From contig CAZPIN010000105.1 in the NCBI GenBank assembly GCA_964586735.1, positions 1 through 62,686 of the forward strand: 62,686 bases of DNA, given 5' to 3'. A model generated the notes under the pieces. The model saw only the letters and a list, made by a program, of their open reading frames with translations. It searched no databases and was not told where the DNA came from. This DNA is from an uncultured Rhodobacterales bacterium (GTDB lineage Bacteria; Pseudomonadota; Alphaproteobacteria; Rhodobacterales; CAZPXZ01). This document shows positions 1 to 36,983 of the stretch, one piece after another (the first letter of the stretch is position 1; each line of letters begins with the position of its first letter). The position numbers and the translations under genes were made by a program.

Positions 1-13
1 CCCCCCCCCCCCC
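1..13 (+). repeat. Homopolymeric poly-C tract (at least 13 C, cut by the window edge) directly upstream of the SD and start codon of Calx-beta autotransporter 1
   Basis: Positions 1-13 are all C, followed by gctcAGGGAGGGcgtc and ATG at 30. The same layout (poly-C, SD, ATG) recurs at 7451-7479 before the paralog. Confidence 0.9.
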
Positions 14-29
14 GCTCAGGGAGGGCGTC

Positions 30-3000
30 ATGAGGTGGCTGCGGACGGCGGGACTGCTGCTGGCATTGGCCGGCATGTGGCCGCTTGGCGCGTGGGCGCA
101 GATGGAGATGGATCCAGTGCCGGTTACGCTGGTCAAGAATACGGGTAAAACTGCAACCCTCAACGGAGTAAGCATGATCGCAGAAGCTACGAATGGAGTC
201 GTGGGCGCTCCGGCAGCCGGGTATACCGCCATTGCGCAACCGTTTCGCACTGGAGCGTCGGCTGGCGGCTATGAAATAGAAAGCGTGGATGTATGGAATG
301 ATCGAACATTAACCCACGTATTCCCGTTTGCCACACTTTCCTTTGTGGTTGAAATTGCGGAGGGGAATGCGGCGGGCACTGCGCCGGAAAGCGCCGATGC
401 CAATGTTTTGCACAGATGGACGTATGACAACTTGCAGAGTACAGCGAATCTTCCGGGCGGTGGCAGCGGCACCGCTTTGCGGATTGAGGTGGATGTGGAC
501 GACGGTACGCATGCAGCGCCAAAGGGTGACAGTGAAACAACGCTCTCCCCCAACACCACTTACTTTCTTGTACTAAGGTGGGCCAATATGACGGGTACGG
601 GGAGAGGATTCACTTCAGGTCCTGTTTCGAGAGACACCTTGGCAACTGACGTGGACACGGACAGCGCCAGCGGCTGGAGTCTGCCGGGCATTGTGAGAGG
701 AATTCGCACCCCTGGAACCTGGGTAGACTTTACTTCAGCGTCCAGGCTGTTAATCGATATCGAGGGGCACATACTGCCCCCGCCGGAGATCAGCATCAGC
801 GACGCTGACGCCGTGACGGAGGGCAATGGGGGAACGGGTGAAGCACCTGTATACCTTGAATACCCGGTGTCCATCGACAAGGCTCCGACTGAGCCGGTTA
901 CGGTCAGCTATGCGCCGGTCGCGTATGATCGAGTAAATGGGCCAACCACGGCGACGGCAGGCGAGGACTTTGTGACGGCTGATGCGTCGGGGACGCTGAC
1001 TTGGGAAGCAGGAGATGACACCGACAAGCTGATTAGGGTGCGGGTCATCGGCGACACGCTGTTCGAAATTGACAGAACTACATTTACCGAAACGCAGGAT
1101 GTGGCAATTATGCTGTCTTCGCCGACCGGCGGCGCCACTGTGAACATGGATATGGACACGGCTTCCGGCACTATCACTGATAACGACGCCAAGCCGCAGA
1201 CCACCGCCCGCGTGACAACAGTTGCAGAGGGCGACTCGGGCGATGCGGCCAGAACTCTGGACTTTGTAGTTACAAGGACAGGAGATGCGGACGAGACCGT
1301 TAACATAAGTACCGAAGTTTGGGTCCAAACCACAGCAGGGGTTTTGCCTGGAGAACCAGCCAATTTGGAACTCGCAGCCTATAACACAGATTTTACCATT
1401 GCAGGAGTCTCGGGCATAAGCGAATCCGGTGGGGCCATTGAAGGAGGTATCAGGTGGGGCGCCAACGAATTCGAGAGGACGGTTTCATTGCCTATTGTAC
1501 TGGACAACATTGCCGAGCCGGACAAGTTTATTGGTTTTTCCTTGGTTCGAGGCTCCTATATGGATGTTGTTGGGGGCAGCGGAGACAATGAATTTGAACG
1601 ATACTTCTTCGGCACCCTGACGGACGATGACCGGGGCATATCCATCGACTCGCCGGAAGTTACGGAAGCTAATTCGGGAGCAGACAGCACCCTGATGTAC
1701 ACCGTTTCGCTGGACGGAGTATGGCCGCATGATGTTACCGTGGAATACTTGGTGACCGGCGGCGACGCGGTAGCGGGCACCGACTACAATGCACTGACCC
1801 CCGGTACGCTGACGATTACAGCAGGCAGCACGTCGGGGACGATCGACATTACGGTTCCTGGCGATGGCGACCCCGAACCCGACAAGACGATTGAGGTAAC
1901 GATCCGCAACGCGCAGTGCGCGTCCTGCGCCGCCAATCTTGTGCCCACTATCACTACGGACGTTGGCGTGGGCACCATACGCGACAACGACACCCCCAGA
2001 GTGTCCATCAGCTCGCCAGCCGCCGTGACCGAAAACGCCGGAACGATGACGTTCAATGTTACGCCAGGTTCGGCCCCTACAGCGCAGGGAACTGTCACTT
2101 GGACGGTGTCCAGCACGAGCACGGCCATGGCAGGCACCGCCGCCGATTACACCATCGCGGACGGCAGTGGTACGCCGCTGAGTGGCACGTTGACGTTTCC
2201 GATAGGCGTCCGCACAGCGCAGCCGATCACGGTTGCCATCAACGACGACATGATCCACGAAGCGGAAGAAACCATCGTCATTGACCTTTCCTCACCCAGC
2301 GGGGGTGTCATACTGGACCCGGCGGCGTCCACCGGTACAGGCAGGATCACGGACAACGACCCCATCCCTACGCTGTCCATCAGCAATGCGACGGTCACCG
2401 AAGTCGATACCGGCACCTCTACCCTGAGCTTCACCGTAACGAAGCAGAATCAAACTGCGCTGCCCGCAAGCGTCAGCTACAGCGTAACGGGCGGCACGGC
2501 GACGTCCGGCACCGACTTCACGGCGCCCACGGGCACCTCGCTGGAATTCGCACCCGCCGAAACGCAGAAAACCATCGACATCCTGGTGACCGGTGACAAT
2601 CTGGCGGAAGGCAATGAAACCGTAGAGATCACCCTTGCCAGCCCTTCCGGCGCTACCATCGCAGGCGGCATGGGCGTCGGGATGGGTACCATCACCGACG
2701 ACGACCTTCTGGAGTTCTCTATCGACTCGACGCAGGTGGCGGAGGGCGCTGCCGGGCAAATGCCTACGATGACGCTTACCGTTTCGCTGGCCTCGGACCA
2801 CGCCTACTCCATTTCGGTGCCCTACACCGTCGAGGGCAGCGCTACCTCCGGCACGGACTACCAGGCGATTCCCGCCGGTCCGCTCGTGTTCGCTTCGGGC
2901 GAAAGGACAAAGACAATCACGGTTACGGTTACGGGCGATGACGACTCGGAGCCGAGCGAGACGGTCGAAATCGTCCTGGGCACGCCTACCTGCACGGGCT

Positions 3001-6000
3001 GCCCTACAGGACTGGACCCCAGCGTCGCGGCTGGTATGAGAAGGGGTGTGGCCACCATAACCAATGACGACTCGCCGCTTCTGTCCATCTCCTCGCCAAG
3101 CGTGACCGAGGGCGATATGGGCACCGTAGACCTGACCTATACGGTGACGCTGACTCCGGCGGTGGACGATCAGACAGTAACCGTCAGCTACGCCGTTACG
3201 GGCGGTACGGCGGAGGAAGGCGTCGACTACACGGCCCCGACTGGCAGCACGCTGACCTTCCAGCCCACCGTCACTACGCAGACCTTTACCATTAGCGTTG
3301 TCGGCGACGAGATCCACGAAGGCGACGAAGACGAAACGGTAATCATATCGCTGTCCAATCAAACGCCGGGCATCGAGCTGGCGCTGGAGCCCGGTACCGG
3401 CAGGATTGCCGACAACGACCCAGCCCCCGTGCTTTCCATCGACCCGTCGAGCGTGAGCGTGAGCGAGGGCGACATGGGTACGACGGACCTGGCATTCACG
3501 GTTACCAAGACCGGGAACGAGACGGCGCTGCCCGCGACGGTCAGCTTCGCCGTGGCGGACGGCACGGCGACCGTCGCCGACGGCGACTACGCCGCGCCAT
3601 CCGTCACTTCGCTGACCTTCGCGCCGGCAGACACCACAATGCCAATTACGGTACCGGTCACTGGCGACAACCGCGCCGAGGAGGACGAGGACCTGACCGT
3701 CACGCTCTCCAATCCTGTTGGCGCCACCATCGGCACGGCCATGGGCACCGGCACCATCCTCGACGACGACCCCCTGACGCTCTCCATCAATTCGCCAGAA
3801 GTGCTGGAAGGCGACTCGGGCACCGCGAACCTGACCTTCGAGGTAACGCTGGCGTCGCTGGCTGCCACTCAGGTCACCGTTGCCTATAGCGTGTCGGACG
3901 GTACCGCGACGGTTGCAGACAGCGACTATGCAGCCCCGCCCGACGGCACGCTGACGTTTCCGGCGGGCAGCATGGCCGCGCAGTCGATTTCCGTAACAGT
4001 CAACGGCGACGAGAACAACGAACCCCACGAGACGGTGACCGTGACGCTGTCCAGTCCCACGGGGGGAGCGATGTTCGTTGGCGGCGATACCACGCTCATG
4101 GGTACGGGCACCATTCTGTCCGATGACCTTCCCCTGATCACCGTAAGCTCGCCAAGCGTGCTGGAAGGGCGCACGGGCACGGCGAATCTCGAGTTTGTCG
4201 TGACGATGAGCCAGACTTGGCGGGATGCCGTTACGGTCGCCTATGAGGTCACGGACGGCACGGCCTCGGCTTCTGACGGGGACTATCGCCCGCTGGCCGA
4301 CACGCTGACCTTCGAGGCAAACACCACCGAGCTCCAGCAGACCATCACCGTTACGGTGAATGGCGACCACACTTCTGAAGGGGACGAGACTGTGACGGTT
4401 ACGCTCTCCAGTCCCGTCAACGCGATCTTCGATGGCGGCAGCTCCACGCTTGCAGGCATCGGCACGATACTCTCTGATGACAGGAGGCTGGCCATCAGCT
4501 CCGCGTCGCAGGTGCAGGAAGGCGATCCTGTGCCAGAAGACCAGGTTGCGGGAACCCCTAGATACCTTGAGTACACGGTGACGCTGAGCCCCGCCGCTGG
4601 CGATTCCCCCGTTCAGGTCGGCTACCAGATTACCGATGCCAGTACCGCCACCCCGAACGCGGACTACGGCATGTCGTCTCCCGAAAGCCCGCTGACCTTC
4701 ATGGCGGGCGAAACCTCTAAAACCATCAGAGTCGCGGTCAACGGCGACTACATTGAGGAGGACAGAGAGTCTGTCGAAATCATGCTGGTGCCAGCTGGAA
4801 GCGCCGCCTCCGTAGCGGGCGCCGTGATCGTGACTCGGTCCGCCAGAGCCTACATTCTGCCAAGAAAGCCTTCGGGCAGCTCGGTGCTGTCGGTGCGGCC
4901 GGGGCGTGTATCGAGTGGCGGAGCCGGAGCGGAGCCGACGGTAGACCTGACGTTTGAGATGAATCCGCCGCGGACGTATCCCGTGACGGTTCAATATCAG
5001 GTGCGGCTCCAGAGCGGCGGGTCAGGCTCCTCCCTTGCTAGAGGCGTAGGGTCCCGGATGCTGGGCGTCACCGCTACGGTTGATCTTGCCGCCAATCAGG
5101 GGATGGCGGATATCACCCATCGTCTGGGGACGTCGTTTGACACGGCTAACGCCCGCGATTTGGAGGTGCTGGTCGAGCAGGCACTGGTAGCGTCCAGCGG
5201 CGATCCCGACCCCAACGTCAACATTGCTGGAGTGCAGGCAGCGGTACGGGGAGGCGGCGCGTTTACCAGAGTGGGCGCGACGGACGCCGCTCGGCTTGCG
5301 AGGGGCTTGGGCTACGTGCTGTCCAGCGCAGGAAGGTCGCTTGCCACCGGACTTGTCGATGCGCTCTGGGAGCGCGCTGCGGCCCACCGGGCGGGCAGCG
5401 GAGAGCAGGTCGCCGTACTGGGCGGACGCGCCGTTGACACCGGGGCCTTCGCGCCGGGCACGGACGCCGGCCGGGCGGCGCGGGAAGTAGCCGGGTTGCT
5501 TGGGATCGAGGCCATAGCGCCCTCGGTACAGGCTGCCTCCTACTCCGGTGGCGTCTACGGCGACGGCATCGAATCGTACCGCGAGTGGGCTGGCCTGCCA
5601 GACTCGGGCGACGCGGCGCGACGCAGCCGATTCGCGCTGTCCCTTGGCGGGAGTGCCGTAGGATCCATCACGGCATGGGGTAGGGGCGACATCCGCTCGT
5701 ACGAGAGCGACTTGGCGGATAAGGGTTTTGCGTCCGAGGGGGAATCGTTCGCATGGCTGTTTGGCGTCGACTACCGGTACCAGGAAGACATTGTCGTAGG
5801 GGTGGCGGTCAGTCGGCTGTCGGGTGAGACCGACTACGTATTTGACGATAACGAGGGCGAAGGCGTGGTGGAAACAGGCCTGACCAGCTTCGCGCCATGG
5901 GTGCACTGGACCAATCCCGCCGGATACGTCGGATACGAGGCGTGGGGCAGCTTTGGTACCGGGTCGGGCACGGCGACGGTCGACGAGGACGGCGGCAAGG

Positions 6001-6785
6001 TGGAGACCGACGTAACCACGCGCATCCTGGCCGCCGGAGTGCGGGGAAGGGAGATGCCCTATGGGCGGGCCATAGTGGCGGCGAAGGCTGACATGTATCG
6101 GGCGACCCTGACATCGACCGCGGCGGAGGGCGGCCTTCAGGTGGCGGATGCGGACGGCAACTCTTCCCGCGTGCGGCTGGCTGTGGAGGCCGCGAGCAGC
6201 AGCAGCCTTGAAAGCGGCGAACAGCTCACCGCTGGATTGGACGTAGGAGCGCGGTTTGATGGCGGCGGGGCGGAGAGCGGTATGGGTGCGGATGTAGCGG
6301 TGGACTTCCGCTATGCCCACCCAACCAACGGCATCGAGGTGACGTGGCGGAACAACTGGCTGCTGTTTCATGGCCAAGACGGGTACAAGGAGTCGGCTTT
6401 CAGTCTCGGCGTCGCCTTTGACCCGGGGATATCCGGGCTGGGCTTCCACATGAACCTGGAGCCGTCGTGGAACGCCAGCCATCTGGGTGGCGGGTCGATG
6501 TGGGACTCGGGACCGGCCGCCGGCCTACTGAATCAGACCGGCGATGGCGCGGCCTATCGGGCTCGGCTCGGCTACGGCCTTGGCGCGCTGCGGGGGCGGG
6601 CTCTGGCGACAGCGTACGGCGAAGTCGACGGCGGCGAAGACGCGCGCATGCGACTGGGCGCGGACCTGCGCAACGCGGACAGCGGCATCAGCGCGGTGCG
6701 GCTGGGGATCTACGGGGAGCGCGAGCACAGCGGAGCGCCGGGCGAGGACGACACGATCATGCTGGAGGGGCGGGTCGGTTTTTGA
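30..6785 (+). CDS. Giant Calx-beta-repeat autotransporter-like outer-membrane protein (paralog 1, 2251 aa)
   Basis: SD AGGGAGGG lies 4-5 nt before ATG 30. Signal peptide MRWLRTAGLLLALAGMWPLGAWA/Q. A ~230-aa head is followed by about 11 tandem ~100-aa Calx-beta-like modules. Each module opens like ISISSPxVTEGD, has a core like VxYxVTGGTAxxGxDYxxxxGTLTFxxGxTxxTIxVxVxGDxxxExxETxxVxLS, and closes GTIxDDD. The C-terminal ~390 aa (nt ~5620-6782) shows alternating-hydrophobic strands (AWGRGDIRSY, GVDYRY, RLGYGL) and ends LEGRVGF, as in autotransporter beta-barrels. Confidence 0.88.
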   Translation: MRWLRTAGLLLALAGMWPLGAWAQMEMDPVPVTLVKNTGKTATLNGVSMIAEATNGVVGAPAAGYTAIAQPFRTGASAGGYEIESVDVWNDRTLTHVFPFATLSFVVEIAEGNAAGTAPESADANVLHRWTYDNLQSTANLPGGGSGTALRIEVDVDDGTHAAPKGDSETTLSPNTTYFLVLRWANMTGTGRGFTSGPVSRDTLATDVDTDSASGWSLPGIVRGIRTPGTWVDFTSASRLLIDIEGHILPPPEISISDADAVTEGNGGTGEAPVYLEYPVSIDKAPTEPVTVSYAPVAYDRVNGPTTATAGEDFVTADASGTLTWEAGDDTDKLIRVRVIGDTLFEIDRTTFTETQDVAIMLSSPTGGATVNMDMDTASGTITDNDAKPQTTARVTTVAEGDSGDAARTLDFVVTRTGDADETVNISTEVWVQTTAGVLPGEPANLELAAYNTDFTIAGVSGISESGGAIEGGIRWGANEFERTVSLPIVLDNIAEPDKFIGFSLVRGSYMDVVGGSGDNEFERYFFGTLTDDDRGISIDSPEVTEANSGADSTLMYTVSLDGVWPHDVTVEYLVTGGDAVAGTDYNALTPGTLTITAGSTSGTIDITVPGDGDPEPDKTIEVTIRNAQCASCAANLVPTITTDVGVGTIRDNDTPRVSISSPAAVTENAGTMTFNVTPGSAPTAQGTVTWTVSSTSTAMAGTAADYTIADGSGTPLSGTLTFPIGVRTAQPITVAINDDMIHEAEETIVIDLSSPSGGVILDPAASTGTGRITDNDPIPTLSISNATVTEVDTGTSTLSFTVTKQNQTALPASVSYSVTGGTATSGTDFTAPTGTSLEFAPAETQKTIDILVTGDNLAEGNETVEITLASPSGATIAGGMGVGMGTITDDDLLEFSIDSTQVAEGAAGQMPTMTLTVSLASDHAYSISVPYTVEGSATSGTDYQAIPAGPLVFASGERTKTITVTVTGDDDSEPSETVEIVLGTPTCTGCPTGLDPSVAAGMRRGVATITNDDSPLLSISSPSVTEGDMGTVDLTYTVTLTPAVDDQTVTVSYAVTGGTAEEGVDYTAPTGSTLTFQPTVTTQTFTISVVGDEIHEGDEDETVIISLSNQTPGIELALEPGTGRIADNDPAPVLSIDPSSVSVSEGDMGTTDLAFTVTKTGNETALPATVSFAVADGTATVADGDYAAPSVTSLTFAPADTTMPITVPVTGDNRAEEDEDLTVTLSNPVGATIGTAMGTGTILDDDPLTLSINSPEVLEGDSGTANLTFEVTLASLAATQVTVAYSVSDGTATVADSDYAAPPDGTLTFPAGSMAAQSISVTVNGDENNEPHETVTVTLSSPTGGAMFVGGDTTLMGTGTILSDDLPLITVSSPSVLEGRTGTANLEFVVTMSQTWRDAVTVAYEVTDGTASASDGDYRPLADTLTFEANTTELQQTITVTVNGDHTSEGDETVTVTLSSPVNAIFDGGSSTLAGIGTILSDDRRLAISSASQVQEGDPVPEDQVAGTPRYLEYTVTLSPAAGDSPVQVGYQITDASTATPNADYGMSSPESPLTFMAGETSKTIRVAVNGDYIEEDRESVEIMLVPAGSAASVAGAVIVTRSARAYILPRKPSGSSVLSVRPGRVSSGGAGAEPTVDLTFEMNPPRTYPVTVQYQVRLQSGGSGSSLARGVGSRMLGVTATVDLAANQGMADITHRLGTSFDTANARDLEVLVEQALVASSGDPDPNVNIAGVQAAVRGGGAFTRVGATDAARLARGLGYVLSSAGRSLATGLVDALWERAAAHRAGSGEQVAVLGGRAVDTGAFAPGTDAGRAAREVAGLLGIEAIAPSVQAASYSGGVYGDGIESYREWAGLPDSGDAARRSRFALSLGGSAVGSITAWGRGDIRSYESDLADKGFASEGESFAWLFGVDYRYQEDIVVGVAVSRLSGETDYVFDDNEGEGVVETGLTSFAPWVHWTNPAGYVGYEAWGSFGTGSGTATVDEDGGKVETDVTTRILAAGVRGREMPYGRAIVAAKADMYRATLTSTAAEGGLQVADADGNSSRVRLAVEAASSSSLESGEQLTAGLDVGARFDGGGAESGMGADVAVDFRYAHPTNGIEVTWRNNWLLFHGQDGYKESAFSLGVAFDPGISGLGFHMNLEPSWNASHLGGGSMWDSGPAAGLLNQTGDGAAYRARLGYGLGALRGRALATAYGEVDGGEDARMRLGADLRNADSGISAVRLGIYGEREHSGAPGEDDTIMLEGRVGF

Positions 6786-6791
6786 GGGGCT

Positions 6792-6814
6792 GGCCGCGCA
6801 TGGCTCGCGCGGCC
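6792..6814 (+). terminator. GC-rich stem-loop 7 nt after the stop codon of autotransporter 1 (possible terminator or mRNA-stabilising hairpin; no U-tract)
   Basis: GGCCGCGC (6792-6799), 7-nt loop atggctc, then GCGCGGCC (6807-6814): a perfect 8-bp stem. No T-run follows, so its function is uncertain. Confidence 0.3.
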
Positions 6815-7450
6815 CTGCGCGACCACGGACACCATCGTCGAAGATTGCCGCAGAGGCAGCCTTCACCTGCGCGAAGCGTGAAACGCGAACGCCATTGGCG
6901 GGAGGGAAGCGCCTGCTGGGCGTAGCAGCTTGGCGAAGCTGGAGACGGGGCCATTCGCAACGGATCTGTCGATGGCAGACGCGGTGATGGTAAAGCCGTA
7001 CTGTGCGGCGCATCCCAATGGCGCGTGGAGAAATGACGGGATATTCGTAGCGCCGCTGCTAGCGGCAGCCGTCATCACCATCGTCGCGGCCACCTGTCAG
7101 CCCAGGGCCAGCCTGTGGCGCCACCGAGCATCCTCGCCGCGTACGAGGCGCATCAGGCCTGAGCCCAGCGGGAGGGTACGGGCTGGAAGTAGATACGAGG
7201 CAGCCGAAGGGCGGGGCCGGGACCGAAGTGGCGGGCAGCGCTATACTGGTGACGCTGGGGCGGCTGGCAGCAGCGCATGCGGGCGCAGGTCGACTGGGTG
7301 CATCCGAGTCGGTGGCCGGAAGCCGTACAGGAACTCGTGGCACACGGCGGTTGCCTAGGACGGCGAGGTGGTGCTGCTGCCGAGGCTTGCCGGCGGGTAG
7401 AATGGCGCATGGCGCGCCGCAAAGAGGAGAAAAGCGCATGCTGAAAGCTT

Positions 7451-7460
7451 CCCCCCCCCC
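7451..7460 (+). repeat. Homopolymeric poly-C tract (10 C) between two SD/ATG pairs upstream of Calx-beta autotransporter 2
   Basis: Sequence: aaaGAGGAGaaaagcgcATG(7438)ctgaaagctt-C10(7451-7460)-gactAAGGAGGGtgtcATG(7477). With 10 C the two ATGs are in frame. Confidence 0.9.
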
Positions 7461-7476
7461 GACTAAGGAGGGTGTC

Positions 7477-10400
7477 ATGAAGTGGCTGCGGACAGCGGGT
7501 CTTCTGCTGGCAGCGGCAGGATTTTGGCCGCATGGCGCATGGGCGCAGACGGAGCCGATTCCCGTTACGCTGGTCGAGAATACGGGTCAAACTGCAGTAA
7601 CGAACGGACCTGGCATTGGCGCAAGGGTTACGGGTGATGGCGCGCTTAATCCGGCAATTGGCTATAATGCCTTGGCACAGCCGTTTACGACGGGAGCGTC
7701 TGCTGGCGGCTATGACATTGAAAGCGTCCGTGTGGTGGTTCAAGGGACGTTGTTTCAAGTCACCATTTTTAAGTCCATTGCCTTTGTGATTGAAATTGCA
7801 GAGGGGAATGCGGCGGGAACCGTGCCGGAAACCGCCGAGGCCAATGTTTTGCACAGGTGGACCTTTGACCTGGAAGCTGCCGACACACCCCTTTTTCCAG
7901 ATACAGAGGTGGATGTAGATGACGACAACCACACAACACCGAAGGGAGAAAATCAAACAGTGCTCGCTCCCAATGAGACTTACTTTCTTATTATTAGGTA
8001 TGATGTAACGGGCACAGGAGTTATGGCAGGTCCAAGATTTGAAGCCACCGCGCAGTCAGTCGTGGACAGTACCAGTTCGAGCGGCTGGAGCATGGGCGAG
8101 TTGAGTGTAGTGAATGTAGTTGAAGGTACAGAAAGCTGGCAAGTGCATATTCCAGAGCGTAGGCTGCATCTCGATATCGAGGGGCACGTGGTCCCGCCAC
8201 CGGAGATCAGCATCAGCGACGCCCCCGCCGTGATGGAAGGCGATTCGGGAATGAGCAATGAACTTGTCTATACAGTTTCCATTGACAAGGCCCCGTTGCA
8301 ACGGACAACGGTCAACTACGCGTCCGTCGCGTACAACACGGCCGGACCCACCACTTCGATGGCTGGCGAGGACTTTGTGGCGGCCGATGCAACTGGCATG
8401 CTGACCTGGGAAGCCGGGGATGACACCGATAGGGAGATCAGGGTGCGGGTTATCGGCGATACGCTGCACGAATTAGACATTAATACGTTAGACAGATCGC
8501 AGGACGTAGCTATTATGCTGTCTGCACCGACTGGAGGCGCCACGCTGGCCGCGGGTGGAGACACGGCCTCAGGCACAATCACCGATGACGACGGCAAACC
8601 GCGTGTTTCTGTAAGCGTGGGATCTGCCGCAGAAGGCGACTCGGGTGATGATACCAGAACCCTGGACGCTACGTTTACATGGACAGGAGATACGGATGAA
8701 AGTGAATTTGTGCGTGTTTCATATAATGTGATGACCTTGCCGGGGCTGGCTGGAGAACCCGCCAATCAATCTGTCGCAGTCGAAAACACTGACTATACCA
8801 CTGCAGGCATACAGGACTTGGACGAGTTTCTCGATGGCTTTGTGCAATTTAGTTCTGGCGAACGAGCCAGGACGATTTCATTTCCGATTGTAATGGACAA
8901 TATCGCCGAACCGGACAAGTATCTTGGCGTTGTCTTGACGCAAAATTTCTATGCGGACATATCTGGCAGCGCGGCGACAGACGAAGATCAAGTGGAATAT
9001 TACTTCTATGGCACCCTGACGGACGACGATCGAGGTATATCCATTGACTCGCCGGGAGTGGATGAAGCAGATTCGGGATCCAACATCACCCTGACCTACA
9101 CCGTGTCGCTGGACGGAGAATGGCCGCAGGAGGTTGCCGTGGACTACTCGGTGGCGGCGGAGAGCACGGCTACCTCCGGCACCGACTATGTTGCCCTGGC
9201 AGATGGAACGCTGACGTTTCCGGCAAACAGCAGTACAGCGCAGACGATCACGGTTACGGTTACTGGCGATGACGAGTTCGAGGAAGACGAGACGATTGTT
9301 GTAAGGCTGGCCAACGCGCGGTGCACGACATCCTGCGGAGTCAATCTTGCGCCCACCATCACTACGGCGGATGGCGAGGGCACCATACGCGACAACGACG
9401 ATCCAAGAATATCCATCAGTAACGCCGCAGCTGTGGATGAGGGCGATTCGGGCATGAGCGCCGAACTTGTCTATACGGTGTCCATCTCCGCTGCTCCGAT
9501 GGAGCAGGTAACGGTCAACTACGCGCCCGTCGCGTACAATTCAGCTGGTCCCACCACGGCGACATCTGGCGAGGATTTTGTGGCGGCCGATGCGATGGGC
9601 ACACTGACTTGGGAAGCAGGGGATGACAGTGACAGGGAAATCAGGGTAAGGATTATCGGCGATACGCTGCTGGAGAGAAATTCAGTCACAAGAGACAGGT
9701 CGCAGGATGTGGCCATCATGCTGTCTTCGCCGACTGGCGGCACCACGCTGGCCGCGGGTGGAGACACGGCTACGGGAACAATCACTGATGACGATGACAA
9801 TCTGCAGGTTACGGCACGCGTGGCAAGTGCTGCTGAAGGAGACTCGATCGATACTGCCAGAACCCTGGATGTTGTAATTGCAAAGACAGGAGACACAGAC
9901 GAAAGCTTTAGTTCTTTGGCAGTCGGATATGTTGTTTTATACAGAACGGGGCAGGCTGGAGAGCCCTCCAATTTGGCCATCGCTAGAAATGGCATCGACT
10001 ACACCACTGTAGGCATATCGAATATAAACATGGACCTCGAGGGTATTGTGCAGTTTGGTCCCACCGAGTACGAGCAAACGCTTTCGTTTCCGATTGTAAT
10101 GGACAATATCGCCGAGCCAGACAGGTATCTTGGCATTAGCTTGCAAAGTGGCACCGGCTTCGATCTAACTGGCGGGGCGGGGAATCAATTTGAACAAAAC
10201 TTCTACGGCACCCTGACGGACGACGACCGAGGCATATCCATCGACTCGCCGGGAGTGGATGAGGTCGATACGGGGGCCGACAGTACCCTGACCTACACCG
10301 TTTCGCTTGACGGGGAATGGCCACAGGAGGTTGCCGTGGACTATTCGGTGACGGCGGAAAGCACGGCTACCTCCGGTGCCGACTATGTTGCTTTGGTGGA

Positions 10401-13400
10401 TGGAACGCTGAGGTTTCCAGCAAACAACAGCGCAGCACGGACGATTACGGTAACGGTTACTGGCGATGACGCGTTTGAGGAAGACGAGACGATCATCGTA
10501 AGGCTCGCCAACGCGCGGTGCACGACATCCTGCGGAGCTAATCTCGCGCCATCCATTACTACAGCGGATGGTACGGGGACTATTCGCAATAATGACAGTC
10601 CCAGGATATCCATCAGTGACGCTCCCGCCGTGGACGAGGGCGACTCGGGAATGAGCGCTGAACTTGTCTATACCGTGTCCATCGACGCTGCTCCGCTACA
10701 GCGGGTAACGGTCAACTACGCGCCCGTCGCGTATGCTCGACTCGGGGACACCACGGCCATGGCAGGCGAGGATTTTGTGGCGGCCGATGCGATGGGCACG
10801 TTGACTTGGGAGGCAGGGGATGACACTGACAGGGAGATCAGGGTAAGGATTATCGGCGATACGCTGTACGAGGTAGATAACAATACTCTATCCGCGTCAC
10901 AGGACGTGGCCATCATGTTGTCTTCGCCAACAGGCGGCGCCATGCTGGCCGCGGGTGGAGACACGGCTTCTGGTACAATCACAGATGACGACAGCTTTCC
11001 GCAGATTACTGCCCGCGTGGGGTCCGCCACAGAGGGTGACTCGAGCGATGCGGCGGGAACCTTGGATGTTGTGGTTTCAAGGACAGGAGATACCGACGAA
11101 AGTACCAGCGTTAGCGCCTCATATTTTATCATAAGCGCATCAGGACTGGCTGGAGAGCCTGCAAATCTGGCCGTTGCAGCGCTGGACGCCGACTACACCA
11201 GAACGGGCATTGCTGGTCTAGATGAGTTTCTTGAGGGTAGTATTGGATTTGGCCCCACCGAATATGCGAGAACGCTTTCGTTTCCGATTATACGTGACAA
11301 TGTCGCCGAACCAGACAAGTACTTGGGAATAGCTCTGCTCAATGCTTCAGAAATTGAAATTACTGGTGGTACGCCAGACGATCCAGTTTTGCGAGGCGAA
11401 GTCTACTTCTATGGCACCCTGACGGACGATGATCGAGGCATATCCATCGATTCACCGGAAGTCACGGAGGCCAACACCGGAGCCGACAGCACCCTGACCT
11501 ACACCGTATCGCTGGACGGTGAATGGCCGCAGGAGGTTGCTGTGGACTACTCGGTGGTAACGGCGGACAGTACAGCGGCCTCCGGTACCGACTACGTGGC
11601 TCTGGCCGATGGTACACTGACGTTTCCGATGGGCAGCGCCACTCCGATGACCATTCCCGTGACGGTCACCGGCGACGACGCGTCCGAGGGTGACGAGACG
11701 ATTGTCGTAAGGCTCGCCAATGCACGCTGCACGACGCCCTGCGGAGACAACCTGGCGCCCACCATCACGACGGCGGATGGCGAAGGCACCATACGAGACA
11801 ACGATATCCCCAGAGTGTCCATCAGCTCGCCGGCTGCCGTGACCGAGGGGGACACGACGACCGTTGCGATGAGGTTCAGCGTCAGGCCAAGCGCGGCCCC
11901 GGATGCGCAGGAAACCGTCATTTGGACGGTCTCCAGCACAAGCACGGCCACGGCCGCCGCCGACTACACCATTGCGGGCGCCAGCGGTACGCCGCTGAGC
12001 GGCCAGCTGACGTTTCCCGCTAACCAAATCACGGCGCAGACGGTCACGGTTACGGTCAACGGCGACCTGCTCCACGAAGGGGACGAAACCATCGTCATTG
12101 ATCTTTCATCGCCGAGCGCGGGACTCATACTGGATACGGCGGCGCAGACGGGGACAGGCACGATCACGGACAACGACCCAGCCCCCGTGCTGTCCATCGG
12201 CAATGCGACGGTGGCCGAGGGCGACACCGGCACCGCGACCCTGCGCTACACCGTAGAGAAGGCGGGACAGACCGCGCTGCCTGCAAGCGTCAGCTACAGC
12301 GTGACGGATGGTACGGCGACGTCTGGCACCGACTTCACGGCGCCCACTGGCACCTCGCTGGAGTTCGCTCCCGCCGAAACGCAGAAAATGATCGAAATCC
12401 AGGTAACCGGAGACAACCTGGCCGAAGGCAACGAAACGGTCGAGATCACCCTTGCCAGCCCCAGCGACGCAACCATCGCAAGCGGCATGGCCGTCGGCAC
12501 GGGTACCATCACCGATGACGACCCCCTGGAGTTCTCGATTGATTCCACGCAGGTGGCGGAAGGCGCTGCCGGGGAATCACCCACGATGACGCTGACCATT
12601 TCGCTGGCGTCGGACCACGCCTACACCCTGACGGTGCCCTACACCGTCGAGGGCAGCGCGACTTCCGGTACGGACTATCAGGCGATTCCCGCCGGTCCGC
12701 TTGTGTTCGCTTCGGGCGAAAGGTCAAAGACGGTCACGGTTACCGTCACGGGCGACGACGATTCGGAGCCTAGCGAGACGGTTGAGATCGTCTTGGGCAC
12801 GCCATCCTGCACGGGCTGCCCCACGGGACTGGGGCCAAGCATCGCGATGGGCATGGCCAGAGGTGTCGGCACCATTGCCAATGACGATTCGCCGCTGCTG
12901 TCCATCGACTCGCCAAGCGTAACCGAGGGCGATGCTGGCGTCGTGGACCTGACCTTTACGGTGACGCTGACTCCAGCAGCGGACGATCAGACAGTAACCG
13001 TCAGCTACGGAGTTACGGGCGGCACAGCGACGGCAGGGGACGACTACACGGCCCCGACTGGCAGCACGCTGACCTTCCAGCCCACCGTTACTACGCAGAC
13101 CTTTACCATCAGCGTTGCTGGCGACGAAATCTACGAAGGCGACGAAACGGTCATCGTCGCGCTGTCGAACCAAACGGAGGGCATCGAGCTGGCGACGGCC
13201 CCCGGTACCGGCACGATCACTGACGACGACCCTATGCCCGTGTTCGCCATCGATTCGCCGAGCGTCAGCGAGGGCGACACGGGTACGACGGACCTGACGT
13301 TTACAGTCACCAAGACGGGGGCTACGGCGCTGCCCGCGACGGTCAGCTTCGCCGTGGCGGACGGTACGGCAACCGTCGCCGACAGCGACTACACCGCCCC

Positions 13401-16400
13401 ATCCGACACGTCGCTGGATTTCGCCCCGGCTGACACCACGTTGACGGTTACGGTTTCAGTTACAGGCGACAGCCGCGGCGAGGAGGACGAGACCCTTACC
13501 GTCACTCTCTCCAACGCTACCGGTGCCACCATCGGTACGGCGGTGGGTACTGGCACCATCCTCGACGACGACCCCCTGACGCTCTCCATCGATTCGCCAA
13601 GCGTGCTGGAAGGCGATTCCGGCACCGCGATCCTGACCTTCGAGGTAACGCTGGCATCTCCGCCATCCTCCCAGGTTACCGTCGCATACAGCGTATCGGA
13701 CGGCACGGCGACAGTCGCCGACGGTGACTATGTCGCGCCGCCCGACGGCACGCTGACGTTTCCAGTGGGCAGCATGGTCGCGCAGACATTTGCGGTAACG
13801 GTCAACGGTGACACCAACGCCGAACCCCACGAGACGGTGACCGTGACGCTGTCCAGCCCCACGGGCGGGGCGGGGTTTGCTGGGGACGGCGCCACGCTGA
13901 TGGGCACCGGTACTATCGTATCCGACGATCTTCCCCTGATCGCCGTCAGCTCGCCAAGCGTGCTGGAAGGACGCTCGGGTACGGCGACTCTCGATTTTGT
14001 CGTGACGATAAGCCAGACTTGGCAGGACGACGTTACGGTCGCCTATGAAGTATCGGACGGTACGGCCACGGCTGCCGACGGAGACTACAGTGCGCCGGCT
14101 TCCGCCACCCTGACCTTTGCGGCCAACACCGCAACGCTCGAGCAGACCATCACGGTCACGGTGAATGGCGACAACGTCTCCGAAGGGGACGAGACCGTGA
14201 CGGTGACGCTGTCCAGTCCTGTCAACGCGATCTTCGACGGCGGCAGTCCCACGCTCGTGGGGACCGGTACGATACTCTCGGACGACCGGAGACTGACCAT
14301 CAGCTCCTCATCCGAGGTGCGGGAAGGAGAGCCTGGAGGCGCACCTGCGTATCTTGAGTATACGGTGGCGCTGACCCCGGCGGCTGGCGGTAGCACGGTC
14401 GAAGTCGGCTACCGGATTACGGACGCCAGCACCGCTACCGTCGAGGCTGACTACTCGGCGCCGTCTCCCGAAAGCCCGCTGGTCTTCATGACGGGCGAAA
14501 CCTCCAAAACCATCAGGGTCGCGGTCAACGGCGACTACATCGAGGAGGCAAGGGAGTTTGTCGAGATCATGCTTGTACCGGCCGAGGGTGCCGTCTCTGC
14601 AGCGGGCGCCGTGATCGAGACGGAGCGCGCCAGAGGCTTCATCCTGCCAAGAAAACCCTCTGGCAGCTCCGTACTGTCGGTGCGCCCGGGACGGGTATCG
14701 ACGGGCGATGACGGGGCCGAGCCGGCGCTGGGTCTTTCGTTTGAGATGGATCCGCCGCGGACGTATCCCGTGACGGTCCAGTATCAGGTGCGGCTCCAAG
14801 GCGATGGACCGGGTACTGCCCTTGCGAGAGACGTCGGATTAGGGGCCGTTCTTGCGGGGGACGCCGGATCCCGGGTGCTGGGCGTCACCGCTACAGTTGA
14901 TCTTGCCGCCAGTCAGGGGACGGCGGAGATCGACCATCGTCTTGGGGCGGCGTTCGATGCAGGCAGCGCCCGAAATCTGGAAGTGCTGGTCGAGCAGGTG
15001 CTGGTCGCGTCCAGCGGCGATCCCGATCCCAACGTCAACATCTCCGGTACGCAGGTAGCGGTACGGGGAGGCGGCGCGGTCACCAGAGTCGGCGGCGCAG
15101 ATGCCGCGCGGCTTGCAAGAGGCCTGGGCTACGTGCTGGCCGGCGCCGGGCGGTCGTTTGCCACCGGACTCGTTGACGCGCTCTGGGAGCGGGCGGCAGC
15201 CCACAGGTCGGGGAGCGGCGAGTCGCTTGCCGTGCTGGGCGGCCGCGCCATCGATACAGCCGCCTTCGCGCCGGGTACGGATGCCAGCCGGGCGGCGCGG
15301 GAGGTAGCCGGGCTGTTTGGAGTCGAGGCGGTAGCGCCCTCGGCTCAGTACGAATCCCTCTACGGAAGCGCCTACGGCGACGGTCTTGAAAACTGGCAAG
15401 GAGCGGTCGCATACGCGGACTCCTACTACGACGGCTCCTATGGAGACGGCATCGGGTCGTACCGCGAGTGGGCTGGCCTGCCAGACTCGGGCGACGCGGT
15501 GCGGCGCAGCCGTTTCGCACTGTCCTTTGGCGGGAGCGCCGTCGGATCCATCACCGCTTGGGGAAGGGGCGACATCCGCTCCTACGAGAGCGATTTGGCG
15601 GATTCGGGATTTTCGTCCGAGGGGGATACGGTCGCATGGCTTTTCGGAGTCGACTACAGGTACCAGAAGGACATCGTCGTAGGGGTGGCGGTCAGTCGGC
15701 TTTCGGGCGAGACCGACTACGTATTTGACGAAAATGAAGGCGAAGGCGCGGTGGAAACCGGTCTGACCAGCTTTGCGCCATGGGTGCATTGGACTGGCTC
15801 CGCCGGATACGAGGCCTGGGGCAGCATAGGAGTCGGGTCGGGCACGGCGACGGTCGACGAGGGCGACAGGGCAGCGGAGACCGATGTCACTTCGCGCATC
15901 CTGGCGGCTGGCGTACGGGGAAGGGAGATGTCCTTTGGACAGGCCATTGTGGCGGCAAAGGCCGACGCGTATCGGGCAACCCTGACATCGTCTGCGGCGG
16001 GTGGCGGCCTTCAGGTGGCGGATGCGGACGGCAACTCGTCACGTGTGCGGCTGGCAGTGGAGGCGTCGCGCAACAGCAGCCTGGACAGCGGCGTACAGCT
16101 TGCCGCTGGACTGGACATAGGAGCGCGGTTTGACGGCGGCGCGGCGGAGAGCGGCATGGGGGCGGATGTTGCCCTCGACCTCCGCTACGCCCATCCAGCC
16201 AACGGCATCGAGGTGACGTGGCGCAGCAGCTGGCTGCTGTTTCATGGCCAGGACGGGTACAAGGAGTCGGCCTTCAGCCTCGGTATCGCCTTTGATCCGG
16301 GGATTTCCGGGCTGGGTTTCCACATGAGTCTGAAGCCGTCGTGGAACGCCGCCCATCTGGGCGGCGGGTCGCTGTGGGACTCGGGGCCAACTGCTGATGT

Positions 16401-16662
16401 ACTGGATCGGGACGGTGATGGCACAGCCTACCGGGCGCGGCTTGGCTACGGTCTGGAGGCGCTGCGGGGGCGGGCTCTGGCGACCGCGTACGGCGAAGTC
16501 GATGACGGCGGCGAAGAAGTACGCATGCGGCTGGGTGCGGACCTGCGCAACGCCGATACTGGCATTGGCGCGGTACGGCTGGGGCTGTACGGGGAGCGCG
16601 AGAACAGCGGAGCGCCGGACGAGGACGATACGATCATGCTAGAAGGGCGGGTCGGTTTCTGA
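7477..16662 (+). CDS. Giant Calx-beta-repeat autotransporter-like outer-membrane protein (paralog 2, ~3061 aa from ATG 7477)
   Basis: The ORF track gives 7228..16662. I place the start at ATG 7477 (SD AAGGAGGG, 7465-7472). The product then begins MKWLRTAGLLLAAAGFWPHGAWA/Q, collinear with paralog 1. An in-frame ATG at 7438 with its own SD (GAGGAG, 7424-7429) would read through the C10 tract (MLKASPPPTKEGV-MKWL). About 17 Calx-beta modules, including a 3 x ~1.2-kb super-repeat. The barrel (nt ~15508-16659) ends LEGRVGF. Long strings match paralog 1, e.g. VPYTVEGSATSGTDYQAIPAGPLVFASGER. Confidence 0.88.
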   Translation: MKWLRTAGLLLAAAGFWPHGAWAQTEPIPVTLVENTGQTAVTNGPGIGARVTGDGALNPAIGYNALAQPFTTGASAGGYDIESVRVVVQGTLFQVTIFKSIAFVIEIAEGNAAGTVPETAEANVLHRWTFDLEAADTPLFPDTEVDVDDDNHTTPKGENQTVLAPNETYFLIIRYDVTGTGVMAGPRFEATAQSVVDSTSSSGWSMGELSVVNVVEGTESWQVHIPERRLHLDIEGHVVPPPEISISDAPAVMEGDSGMSNELVYTVSIDKAPLQRTTVNYASVAYNTAGPTTSMAGEDFVAADATGMLTWEAGDDTDREIRVRVIGDTLHELDINTLDRSQDVAIMLSAPTGGATLAAGGDTASGTITDDDGKPRVSVSVGSAAEGDSGDDTRTLDATFTWTGDTDESEFVRVSYNVMTLPGLAGEPANQSVAVENTDYTTAGIQDLDEFLDGFVQFSSGERARTISFPIVMDNIAEPDKYLGVVLTQNFYADISGSAATDEDQVEYYFYGTLTDDDRGISIDSPGVDEADSGSNITLTYTVSLDGEWPQEVAVDYSVAAESTATSGTDYVALADGTLTFPANSSTAQTITVTVTGDDEFEEDETIVVRLANARCTTSCGVNLAPTITTADGEGTIRDNDDPRISISNAAAVDEGDSGMSAELVYTVSISAAPMEQVTVNYAPVAYNSAGPTTATSGEDFVAADAMGTLTWEAGDDSDREIRVRIIGDTLLERNSVTRDRSQDVAIMLSSPTGGTTLAAGGDTATGTITDDDDNLQVTARVASAAEGDSIDTARTLDVVIAKTGDTDESFSSLAVGYVVLYRTGQAGEPSNLAIARNGIDYTTVGISNINMDLEGIVQFGPTEYEQTLSFPIVMDNIAEPDRYLGISLQSGTGFDLTGGAGNQFEQNFYGTLTDDDRGISIDSPGVDEVDTGADSTLTYTVSLDGEWPQEVAVDYSVTAESTATSGADYVALVDGTLRFPANNSAARTITVTVTGDDAFEEDETIIVRLANARCTTSCGANLAPSITTADGTGTIRNNDSPRISISDAPAVDEGDSGMSAELVYTVSIDAAPLQRVTVNYAPVAYARLGDTTAMAGEDFVAADAMGTLTWEAGDDTDREIRVRIIGDTLYEVDNNTLSASQDVAIMLSSPTGGAMLAAGGDTASGTITDDDSFPQITARVGSATEGDSSDAAGTLDVVVSRTGDTDESTSVSASYFIISASGLAGEPANLAVAALDADYTRTGIAGLDEFLEGSIGFGPTEYARTLSFPIIRDNVAEPDKYLGIALLNASEIEITGGTPDDPVLRGEVYFYGTLTDDDRGISIDSPEVTEANTGADSTLTYTVSLDGEWPQEVAVDYSVVTADSTAASGTDYVALADGTLTFPMGSATPMTIPVTVTGDDASEGDETIVVRLANARCTTPCGDNLAPTITTADGEGTIRDNDIPRVSISSPAAVTEGDTTTVAMRFSVRPSAAPDAQETVIWTVSSTSTATAAADYTIAGASGTPLSGQLTFPANQITAQTVTVTVNGDLLHEGDETIVIDLSSPSAGLILDTAAQTGTGTITDNDPAPVLSIGNATVAEGDTGTATLRYTVEKAGQTALPASVSYSVTDGTATSGTDFTAPTGTSLEFAPAETQKMIEIQVTGDNLAEGNETVEITLASPSDATIASGMAVGTGTITDDDPLEFSIDSTQVAEGAAGESPTMTLTISLASDHAYTLTVPYTVEGSATSGTDYQAIPAGPLVFASGERSKTVTVTVTGDDDSEPSETVEIVLGTPSCTGCPTGLGPSIAMGMARGVGTIANDDSPLLSIDSPSVTEGDAGVVDLTFTVTLTPAADDQTVTVSYGVTGGTATAGDDYTAPTGSTLTFQPTVTTQTFTISVAGDEIYEGDETVIVALSNQTEGIELATAPGTGTITDDDPMPVFAIDSPSVSEGDTGTTDLTFTVTKTGATALPATVSFAVADGTATVADSDYTAPSDTSLDFAPADTTLTVTVSVTGDSRGEEDETLTVTLSNATGATIGTAVGTGTILDDDPLTLSIDSPSVLEGDSGTAILTFEVTLASPPSSQVTVAYSVSDGTATVADGDYVAPPDGTLTFPVGSMVAQTFAVTVNGDTNAEPHETVTVTLSSPTGGAGFAGDGATLMGTGTIVSDDLPLIAVSSPSVLEGRSGTATLDFVVTISQTWQDDVTVAYEVSDGTATAADGDYSAPASATLTFAANTATLEQTITVTVNGDNVSEGDETVTVTLSSPVNAIFDGGSPTLVGTGTILSDDRRLTISSSSEVREGEPGGAPAYLEYTVALTPAAGGSTVEVGYRITDASTATVEADYSAPSPESPLVFMTGETSKTIRVAVNGDYIEEAREFVEIMLVPAEGAVSAAGAVIETERARGFILPRKPSGSSVLSVRPGRVSTGDDGAEPALGLSFEMDPPRTYPVTVQYQVRLQGDGPGTALARDVGLGAVLAGDAGSRVLGVTATVDLAASQGTAEIDHRLGAAFDAGSARNLEVLVEQVLVASSGDPDPNVNISGTQVAVRGGGAVTRVGGADAARLARGLGYVLAGAGRSFATGLVDALWERAAAHRSGSGESLAVLGGRAIDTAAFAPGTDASRAAREVAGLFGVEAVAPSAQYESLYGSAYGDGLENWQGAVAYADSYYDGSYGDGIGSYREWAGLPDSGDAVRRSRFALSFGGSAVGSITAWGRGDIRSYESDLADSGFSSEGDTVAWLFGVDYRYQKDIVVGVAVSRLSGETDYVFDENEGEGAVETGLTSFAPWVHWTGSAGYEAWGSIGVGSGTATVDEGDRAAETDVTSRILAAGVRGREMSFGQAIVAAKADAYRATLTSSAAGGGLQVADADGNSSRVRLAVEASRNSSLDSGVQLAAGLDIGARFDGGAAESGMGADVALDLRYAHPANGIEVTWRSSWLLFHGQDGYKESAFSLGIAFDPGISGLGFHMSLKPSWNAAHLGGGSLWDSGPTADVLDRDGDGTAYRARLGYGLEALRGRALATAYGEVDDGGEEVRMRLGADLRNADTGIGAVRLGLYGERENSGAPDEDDTIMLEGRVGF
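8206..11814 (+). repeat. Intragenic tandem super-repeat: 3 copies of a ~1.2-kb unit, each encoding three different Calx-beta modules
   Basis: Unit boundaries fall at the ISIS(D/N)A motif: nt ~8206, ~9409, ~10606, with the next module at ~11815 (periods 1203, 1197, 1209 nt). Each unit runs ISISDAPAVxEGDSGMS...TITDDD, then AAEGDS...NIAEPDKYLG...YGTLTDDD, then RGISIDSPGVDE...ARCTTSCG.NLAP.ITTADG.GTIR.ND. Paralog 1 has one such unit (nt ~789-2000). Confidence 0.9.
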
Positions 16663-17052
16663 GGGACGGGCTGCCTATGCTGGCGGCCGCCTGCACCGAT
16701 GCGAACGCTGTTGAGGGGATACACCGTACGGTGAACCTGGACTCGTAGAGAGAGAGCTAAGCATGACTCCATCGGCGGGGGATGTCCGCCTTCGTTGAGG
16801 AGCGGCCTGCGGGCGAAGCTGGGATGAGCGCTTGACCGGTCGAACTTGTCGATGGCAGATGCTATGATGGTCGAGATGCCCAACCCACGATATCCCAATA
16901 GCTCACGGGATTGCGGTTTCACAGTGATATGGCAGTCATCACTAGACATCCAGAAATTTCGAGGTTGACCACGTGAAGCAAACTGTGCTAGAAGTACCCG
17001 ACAACCAGACTGTCTAGACAGTCTACCCACCACATCTTAGGGAGTGGCGAGA

Positions 17053-22479: not shown

Positions 22480-22724
22480 GGTCAGTCTCCCATGTCTTTG
22501 GTCAATCAGCAGGAAGAGGGCGTACGGCAAGCCGTACAACACTCTTGCAGAATCCGCAGAAGAATAATGCAGAATGTAGAACATGTGGAAGGTGACATTC
22601 TTCTACAAGTGCAGTCTGCGGAGAGCAGTTGCAGTACGTACCAAACTTGTGTTTTTATGCGGAGAAGGGTAGTACTCTTGCACGGACAGAATGCAAACAA
22701 CAGTATTAAGGGCGAAAAATTCAA

Positions 22725-32740: not shown

Positions 32741-33027
32741 GGCCGTCGGTTTGTACCAGTCCCCAGCGGGGCTGCCAGGCATAGGCATTCCGCATCGGAA
32801 GCCGCCACGTTTCCCGGCGGCCTTTCCTTCCTTCGCGGGAAGGTCCAGCGCGCGCGGTTCGTTCCTATCTGAGGCGCGGGTAAGGTTCGCGCGCGCAGGC
32901 TCGATACCGCCGACGCCGCTGCTTTGGTCCCTGCTATCCGTAAGTATGTCGGTAAACCGTCTGGATTTCCGCTATCCTGCGTCGCCAGTACATGGGTCAT
33001 GAGGACCGGAGCGCAGGGGAGGACAGT

Positions 33028-34581: not shown

Positions 34582-34845
34582 GGCCGTCCGCCCTCGACGG
34601 CCTGCTGCGGATTGCGGCTCGTTTTGTGGCAGAGACTGCCGCGCTGGTGGCAGTTCCCGGGTCTCTGCGCTTCAGCACCCTCGATACACGGCATGGCCAG
34701 CGCGTCGATTTCTACAGTGCCTTCCGTCCGCATTGCCCAGCGGGGCGGGCGCATTGCCAAACGCCATACAAGGGTGAAGCCGCTTGCGCCGCTGCCGCAG
34801 CCCGTCTATGCTGACATGAAAGAGATCCCCCTGGAGAAACCTGAT

Positions 34846-36952: not shown

Positions 36953-36983
36953 CGGGCGCGCGCAAGCCATAAGGAACAGATCA

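Follow-up and report, generated by a model that had tools for sequence, protein, structure and literature searches.

G:C homopolymers at or just 5' of surface-structure genes are known from several bacteria, in which several paralogs can be switched independently. The poly-G of Neisseria pilC lies in the signal-peptide coding region and acts as a strict ON/OFF frameshift within the open reading frame (ORF), the poly-C of Bordetella fim separates an activator site from the -10 as a promoter spacer, and the latter, together with the poly-G of Treponema tpr, is an example of a homopolymer that works on the transcript level. To our knowledge, such contingency loci are known almost wholly from host-adapted pathogens. 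Here, we analyse a run of ten cytosines (C10, positions 7451-7460) that stands between two pairs of a Shine-Dalgarno (SD) sequence and an ATG in front of the gene of a giant secreted protein. It lies in a stretch of 62,686 nucleotides (the window) from an uncultured Rhodobacterales bacterium (GenBank assembly GCA_964586735.1, contig CAZPIN010000105.1), whose source is a sponge metagenome. The original prediction had proposed this tract as a candidate translational ON/OFF or rheostat switch.

What distinguishes the locus from pilC and fim is that neither of those carries a second SD-equipped start directly after the tract. The closest functional analogue is uspA1 of Moraxella catarrhalis, in which a G(n) tract 29 bp upstream of the adhesin ORF yields graded mRNA levels (PMC7302503). 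Both systems place a G:C homopolymer of ~8-12 nucleotides some tens of nucleotides 5' of a large ORF for an autotransporter-type adhesin, and in uspA1 single-base changes are graded (high/low). There, however, the effect was measured on mRNA, no upstream ATG or frame logic is involved, and variation was shown experimentally in a human pathogen, whereas the present tract lies 16 nucleotides before the start, between two in-frame starts, and is known from sequence alone. Haemophilus influenzae licA (lic1) shares the logic of frame and start codon: a CAAT repeat with alternative initiation codons forms a translational switch with more than two states (PMC2212159). The repeat of licA is a tetranucleotide within the ORF, preceded by all of the alternative ATGs, and in one frame the gene is truly OFF. 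The present homopolymer, by contrast, has an ATG on either side, and since the second of these comes with an SD of its own, no frame need be OFF. Indeed, the two upstream ATGs (7402 and 7438) share one frame, and the main ATG is downstream and independent of the tract. In Mycobacterium tuberculosis espR, a G7 in the 5' untranslated region (UTR) alters translation, a one-base insertion raising translation efficiency (PMC11898584). This system, too, has a G:C homopolymer in a 5' leader with two candidate SD/start sites, but its tract is 144 bp upstream, at the transcript 5' end, and acts via UTR folding, whereas the folding changes modelled here are small and frame coupling would be the likelier lever. 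A literature search on homopolymer phase variation in sponge symbionts returned nothing relevant. Unusual about the present locus are the host context and the two-start arrangement.

Two starts around a C10 tract

We compared the locus with consensus Logan contigs of five sponge-metagenome runs. X1-X3 hold the same population at 4-10x depth; X4 and X5, from two other studies, hold a related population at ~90-140x depth. The features of the window are listed below with position, strand and identity.

1-13, no strand: homopolymer of at least 13 C before paralog 1, truncated by the window edge; the contigs of X1-X3 break at or before it
14-6785, plus strand: paralog 1, with a 16-nucleotide spacer holding GGAGGG (20-25), ATG at 30 and a 2251-residue protein
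7321-7450, plus strand: leader segment duplicated with the gene, homologous to the upstream regions of paralog 1 and of the X4/X5 relative
7398-7403, plus strand: TAGAAT, the best -10-like hexamer of the conserved leader and a candidate only; no listed mismatch in paralogous or related contigs, and without a matching -35
7424-7429, plus strand: upstream SD-like GAGGAG, 8 nucleotides 5' of ATG 7438; intact in the X4/X5 relative and also found before the upstream ATG of the distant homolog L083
7438-7476, plus strand: upstream ATG and 13 codons (MLKASPPPTKEGV) that join the frame of the main ORF at C10 and form a short upstream ORF at other lengths
7451-7460, no strand: C10 homopolymer, candidate slipped-strand tract; X1 and X2 contigs both give C10 as consensus
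7464-7466, plus strand: TAA that closes the upstream ORF at 3n+2 (C8, C11, C14), overlapping the main SD
7465-7472, plus strand: main SD AAGGAGGG, with a GGAGGG core that both paralogs and the X4/X5 relative share unchanged
7477-7545, plus strand: main ATG and predicted signal peptide MKWLRTAGLLLAAAGFWPHGAWA, with cleavage before Q, by inspection
7478-7480, plus strand: TGA that closes the upstream ORF at 3n, in ATGA overlap with the main ATG
7477-16662, plus strand: paralog 2, a secreted protein of 3061 residues: N-terminal beta-sandwich, then 13 Calx-beta repeats, then a beta-rich C-terminal domain whose last residue is F

Read from the sequence, GAGGAG is followed by eight nucleotides, the upstream ATG (7438-7440), ctgaaagctt, C10, gact, AAGGAGGG, tgtc and the main ATG (7477-7479), with each element where the original prediction had placed it. 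Its frame arithmetic was likewise correct: with C10 both ATGs share a frame, and translation from 7438 gives MLKASPPPTKEGV and then MKWLRTAG... from 7477. The tract lies 10 nucleotides after the SD-equipped upstream ATG and 16 nucleotides before the ATG of the signal peptide. The public gene call for this protein (P0010, 3074 residues) begins at 7438, not at the signal-peptide ATG. Both C10 and the run of at least 13 C at positions 1-13 are perfect repeats of a length that permits slippage (about 8 or more for G:C), and C10 is placed at the 5' end of the gene of a secreted Calx-beta protein, where an insertion or deletion alters the frame.

The frame outcomes were computed for tract lengths of 7 to 17. 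With 3n+1 cytosines (7, 10, 13, 16) the upstream ATG is fused to the main ORF, with 3n+2 (C8, C11, C14) the upstream frame ends at the TAA inside the main SD, and with 3n (C9, C12, C15) it ends at the TGA, as ATGA on the main ATG. Such an ATGA overlap is a classic coupling layout.

We propose that C10 is a slippage-prone contingency tract within the transcribed 5' end that would set the frame of upstream-initiated translation, a proposition that we regard as evenly balanced. Ribosomes would start either at the upstream SD-ATG (7424-7440) or at the main SD-ATG (7465-7479), the latter opening the signal peptide, and the number of cytosines would determine the frame of the former. At 3n+1 (10, 13) a read-through precursor would arise, with at least 13 extra N-terminal residues that would be lost with the signal peptide; at 3n+2 upstream translation would terminate at the TAA on the main SD, and at 3n at the TGA overlapping the main ATG. 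In this manner tract length would tune the yield or the targeting of the adhesin rather than turn it fully OFF, and the paralogs would be settable independently of each other. We infer four things here: the tract is transcribed, initiation occurs at both starts, slippage is frequent enough to be useful, and expression responds to tract length. The ON/OFF alternative of the original prediction is unlikely, and a graded output fits better, since a strong SD serves the main ATG directly, and both out-of-frame upstream ORFs terminate at this ATG or next to it.

Recurrence of the tract in paralogs and homologs

The adjacent paralog offers the nearest comparison. Paralog 1 (30-6785) opens with C13 at window positions 1-13, followed by 16 nucleotides including GGAGGG and the ATG at 30, and after the tract it has the same layout as paralog 2, including a homologous signal peptide, in a 5' region homologous to that of paralog 2. 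The unequal tract lengths on which the prediction had built are borne out, with 10 against at least 13. Of the 16 nucleotides flanking the tract, 5 differ between the paralogs, and the sequence after it reads GACTAA in one and GCTCAG in the other; both runs are nonetheless uninterrupted. The reading of the edge tract as an assembly or poly-G artefact was ruled out, since the homologous internal C10 is spanned by contigs in two runs, and it is also countered by the X2 contig, which likewise starts within the paralog-1 tract.

Contigs spanning the tract of paralog 2 give a gapless C10 in X1 and X2; the X3 contig stops 3 nucleotides past the tract. Other contigs match the leader over 7321-7442 or 7321-7448 with 9-11 mismatches and beyond that have another 5' neighbour. 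One of these, a second contig in X1-X3, matches 7321-7442 with 9 mismatches, and is identical over the 30 nucleotides at 7413-7442. We read it as the region 5' of paralog 1, which would then have the upstream SD and ATG, too. Since these 30 nucleotides are identical between the paralog leaders, yet the tracts measure 10 and at least 13, tract length appears to have changed faster than its flanks. Assemblies break off at the paralog-1 tract, that of the source contig as well as those of X1, X2 and X3, which fits a long or heterogeneous tract; failure of Illumina sequencing on long homopolymers would look alike. A conserved non-coding block (..GGCGAAGCTGG..TGTCGATGGCAGA.GC..TGATGGT..ATCCCAAT..) lies 3' of the stop codons of both paralogs, at 6930-7030 and 16810-16910, which indicates that the duplication unit takes in ~130 nucleotides upstream and ~250-330 nucleotides downstream.

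Three or more paralogous 5' ends occur in the related population of X4 and X5. The upstream contig of this population matches the window over 7321-7448 and continues with A-CCCCC-TACT-CCCC-GACGCAGGGAGGGCAT.. into a paralog-1-like gene, so that the tract is interrupted (C5-TACT-C4). GAGGAG and ATG 7438 are intact there: from counts in three 48-nucleotide sub-windows, the mismatches in 7393-7440 fall only at 7408 and 7411, and a single extra mismatch falls in 7441-7448. The main ATG follows the upstream ATG at 11+30+1 = 42 nucleotides, without gaps in the alignment, and the two are in frame. A search of genome and metagenome contig collections with the exact DNA pattern GGAGGGYGTCATGARGTGGCTGCGGAC gave no match.

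Is a homopolymer at this position a common feature of the family? An exhaustive HMMER search with the extended N-terminus returned the window's own protein (P0010) and a few remote homologs. The first of these with a tract, L083 (P0011, 2402 residues, on a Logan contig of SRR26493824), has the same overall architecture as the window protein. It carries C8 at 1190-1197, the sole run of 7 or more in 8.7 kb, in the context GAGGAGaacagctATG...GCTTG-C8-AGGGGAG; a GAGGAG-N7-ATG precedes it, with the ATG (1165) 25 nucleotides before C8 and, across the tract, in frame with the entire ORF. The hydrophobic signal segment of L083 begins ~128 codons later, which makes ATG 1165 no more than a candidate start codon. 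The second, L086 (P0015, on a 933-kb contig, ENA ERZ24894577), carries G15 at 1481-1495, the only such run in 4.7 kb, which ends 5 nucleotides before the ATG of a clear signal peptide. Its upstream ATGs at 1367 (context aatGCGCATGCTG, with a 10-mer identical to window 7434-7443) and 1412 (with a GGAGG SD) both traverse the G-run and end at TAG 1496-1498, 3 nucleotides before the main ATG; one additional G would fuse them to the main ORF. P0015 itself is a 576-residue secreted protein with two copies of the same N-terminal domain family.

When the leaders were aligned around the upstream ATG, the observed score was reached by 22 of 2000 shuffles for L083 and by 13 of 2000 for L086. The upstream SD-ATG pair is kept, being identical over 7413-7442 in the putative paralog-1 upstream region and intact in X4/X5, with similar ATG contexts in L083 and L086. 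Of four measurable cases, three (paralog 2, the X4/X5 relative and L083) have the upstream ATG in frame, L086 being one base off. A tract fixed at ten C in all relatives, which would have spoken against a variable switch, was not found; C5-TACT-C4, C8 and G15 stand at the equivalent place. As far as the sequences can tell, the shared feature is a G:C homopolymer between a putative upstream start and the predicted start of the signal peptide, with the cytosines on either strand. The tract being C in some members and G in another points to a property at the DNA level (slippage, frame), not to one that is encoded or resides in RNA structure.

Other homologs gave no such tract: L084 has none, L085 has only a C9 520 nucleotides upstream and a T8 inside the ORF, and P0008 and P0009, which are homologous in the C-terminal domain only, have none upstream. 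A word-indexed search with the N-terminal 400 residues found only Calx-beta matches, a search with the N-terminal alignment of the two paralogs found no match, and JGI metagenome contigs, scanned with a protein pattern, yielded no relative.

Could the runs be fortuitous? In the 62.7-kb window, C/G runs of 7 or more are fewer than a first-order Markov model predicts (3 observed, 11.2 expected), and those of 10 or more are in excess (2 observed, 0.285 expected), two or more occurring in 1% of simulations, a figure that takes no account of the homologous placement of the two runs. Both occupy homologous sites, before the two paralogs, and no other run of this length exists in the window. Other proteobacterial loci, 338.8 kb in all, contain a single C/G run of at least 8 nucleotides and none of at least 10. 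The tract is not due to chance. The sole remaining window run of 7 or more is a C7 on the plus strand (G7 on the coding strand) at 56812-56818, inside a 2874-residue minus-strand ORF (52400-61024).

Taken across the family, a three-state translational rheostat might be conserved in these giant adhesin-like proteins of sponge-associated bacteria, with the tract kept after a start context of the type ..GCGCATGCTG... Each paralog would then adopt one of three states, namely an N-terminally extended precursor, an upstream ORF ending on the SD or an upstream ORF ending in ATGA. We put this wider claim forward tentatively and consider it rather doubtful.

Weighing the alternatives

Several observations weigh against a frame-setting contingency tract. 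The main ATG, with its own SD, is usable in all three frames, so the phenotypic effect could be small. Homopolymers are better tolerated in non-coding DNA, and their enrichment here may be partly passive. The consensus is C10 in both samples that span the tract, and heterogeneity within the population would be hypothetical. Judging by the interrupted tract of the abundant X4/X5 relative, the family can do without a hypermutable one. The L083 tract, ~310 nucleotides before the likely start of the signal peptide, fits a translational model less well. Finally, a promoter and terminator scan of 6700-7600 predicted no site and found no sigma-70-like -35/-10 hexamers flanking the tract.

The last point bears equally on the first rival, an unlikely one in our view, in which the tract lies in or near the promoter, the start region or the 5' UTR and alters the initiation or stability of the mRNA, the upstream ATG being irrelevant. 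Most characterised homopolymers 5' of adhesin ORFs do work on the transcript level, as in uspA1 (PMC7302503), the L083 tract with its ~310 nucleotides to the probable start is compatible with such a role, and the conserved GCGCATGCTG-type motif could be a DNA-binding site instead of a start context. A sigma-70-like -35/-10 pair around the tract is missing, however, and what follows the tract (GACTAA or GCTCAG) is not -10-like and differs between the paralogs. What is invariant is GGAGGG, which begins about 4-7 nucleotides past the tract end and is followed by four nucleotides and the ATG. It would be useless directly after the tract if transcription began downstream of it, which implies that the tract lies inside the mRNA. 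The in-frame upstream ATG in three of four cases is not predicted by a purely transcriptional model either. The promoter spacer that the original prediction had kept as an alternative is thereby disfavoured. Among other candidates, a sigma-54-like TGGCAC...TTGC at 7338-7354 was rejected on inspection, its spacing being wrong and its TTGC being mutated in the paralogous copies.

It is improbable that there is no switch at all, i.e. that a C-rich leader spacer drifted into a homopolymer that is tolerated as non-coding, and that the length differences are neutral slippage noise. Such drift would agree with the X4/X5 relative, which thrives at its high depth with an interrupted tract, with the uniform C10 consensus, with a main ORF that is translatable in all three frames and with the small predicted effect of one C more or less on the accessibility of the ribosome binding site (RBS). 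Yet in distant homologs of different assemblies the same place is again occupied, independently, by pure G:C runs, among them a G15 in the other strand sense, against a background of just one run of 8 or more in 339 kb, and both diverged paralogs keep uninterrupted runs though 5 of the 16 flanking nucleotides differ.

A classical ON/OFF frameshift within the ORF, with 7438 as the true start, the tract within an extended signal peptide, protein made only at 3n+1 and 7477 as an internal methionine, strikes us as quite improbable. The upstream ATG does have a good SD, is in frame in paralog 2, the X4/X5 relative and L083, and is the start that the gene caller chose; L086, with G15 and one base out, could be a captured OFF variant, and, read in that frame, the changes 3' of the tract are conservative (K/R, V/I) or synonymous (GGT/GGC). 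Against this, ATG 7477 is preceded at 5 nucleotides by a perfect AGGAGG that stays invariant amid variable flanks, and it is precisely the first codon of a complete canonical signal peptide. The out-of-frame upstream ORFs finish on or beside 7477, which would favour re-initiation, and extensions of 45 residues in L086 and 128 in L083 are implausible for a Sec signal peptide.

Structure of the leader RNA offers little. In 7300-7520 no inverted repeats were found, Rfam has no family in the window, and leader folding energies are no better than those of shuffled sequences (z = +0.65 to -1.77). The modelled RBS accessibility, expressed as opening energy, shifts by 0.3-0.4 kcal/mol per C, so that occlusion of the second RBS, which the original prediction had entertained, would as an RNA structure be a weak lever. 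An element that acts in the RNA and needs no length change, be it an anti-SD hairpin, suggested by the pairing of CCC.CC with GG.GGG in the minimum-free-energy folds of both paralogs, or EF-P-dependent poly-proline stalling at CCC codons on the main SD, suggested by the SPPP that the C10 upstream frame encodes, at which a ribosome would stand 12-20 nucleotides before the main ATG, and by proline-codon leader ORFs described as regulators (PMC8092293), is very improbable given these folding energies, the G15 of L086, with which neither anti-SD pairing nor proline codons are conserved, and the G-run of L083, after which no start stands at SD spacing.

Encoded proteins, neighbourhood and significance

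The paralogs are 75% identical over ~2000 residues and contain 13 (paralog 2) and 10 (paralog 1) Calx-beta repeats by Pfam. The signal peptide of paralog 2, MKWLRTAGLLLAAAGFWPHGAWA|Q, shows n-, h- and c-regions with AWA|Q by inspection. The original prediction had called the protein an autotransporter, a label that is weakly supported. There is an N-terminal Sec signal peptide, again by inspection, and a passenger of the beta-sandwich and the 13 Calx-beta repeats, but the C-terminal ~300 residues, which are beta-rich and end in F, reach 19.4 bits (E 9.5e-4) with the autotransporter beta-domain PF03797, short of its cut-off of 26. NCBIfam has no match for them, a PDB profile search gives no barrel match, and what Pfam does detect is the Calx-beta repeats; the AlphaFold model of this region is all-beta at low confidence (predicted local distance difference test, pLDDT, 50). 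Autotransporter identity is plausible but unproven.

The N-terminal ~220 residues (window 7546-8211 and 99-779) are a beta-sandwich in AlphaFold (predicted template modelling score, pTM, 0.69) with conserved motifs TLVxNxGQ ... AQxFxTGxxxxGY ... W. This domain belongs to no Pfam or NCBIfam family, has very few homologs among 1.8 billion representatives, and gives only weak jelly-roll-like matches against the PDB, none of them informative. Within paralog 2, 8211-11850 holds three tandem copies of a ~1.2-kb module (periods of 1197-1209 nucleotides, 76-86% identity), of which paralog 1 holds a single copy (around 944-2030). The copy number of three against one accounts for most of the 810-residue size gap and indicates a recent internal repeat expansion. 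The intergenic ORFs in 6525-7956 have no Pfam match.

Further downstream, the guanine-cytosine (GC) content drops to 46-55% over 17044-24000, compared to ~60-66% elsewhere in the window. The dip covers a 1811-residue ORF (17044-22479, no Pfam match) and the start of a third Calx-beta protein gene (22725-29207, 8 repeats), which has neither a homopolymer nor the conserved leader upstream; the low-GC region may be a foreign island. A paralogous pair at 34612-36462 and 49596-51146 combines AAA-ATPase_like (PF09820) with a PD-(D/E)XK nuclease (PF08011) domain and sits amid genes of betaine/dimethylglycine catabolism (MttB at 32992-34581 and a DMGDH-like gene at 36885-39410); the DMGDH-like gene is 74% identical to Rhodobacterales metagenome-assembled genomes, which assigns the bacterium to the Alphaproteobacteria.

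In practical terms, such tracts break short-read assemblies, and the start-codon annotation of this family would flip with tract length, gene callers choosing differing starts. The recurring G:C runs at the same position in distant homologs are a testable marker for such loci in metagenomes. If the rheostat is real, it would be the first contingency-locus family described from a marine invertebrate symbiont, with a design that lacks a fully OFF state. Should the tract prove variable and modulate expression, localised hypermutation would serve a sponge symbiont to diversify its giant, eukaryote-like (Calx-beta) surface proteins one copy at a time, which would bear on the evasion of phagocytosis or phage by the symbiont and on its persistence in a filter-feeding host.

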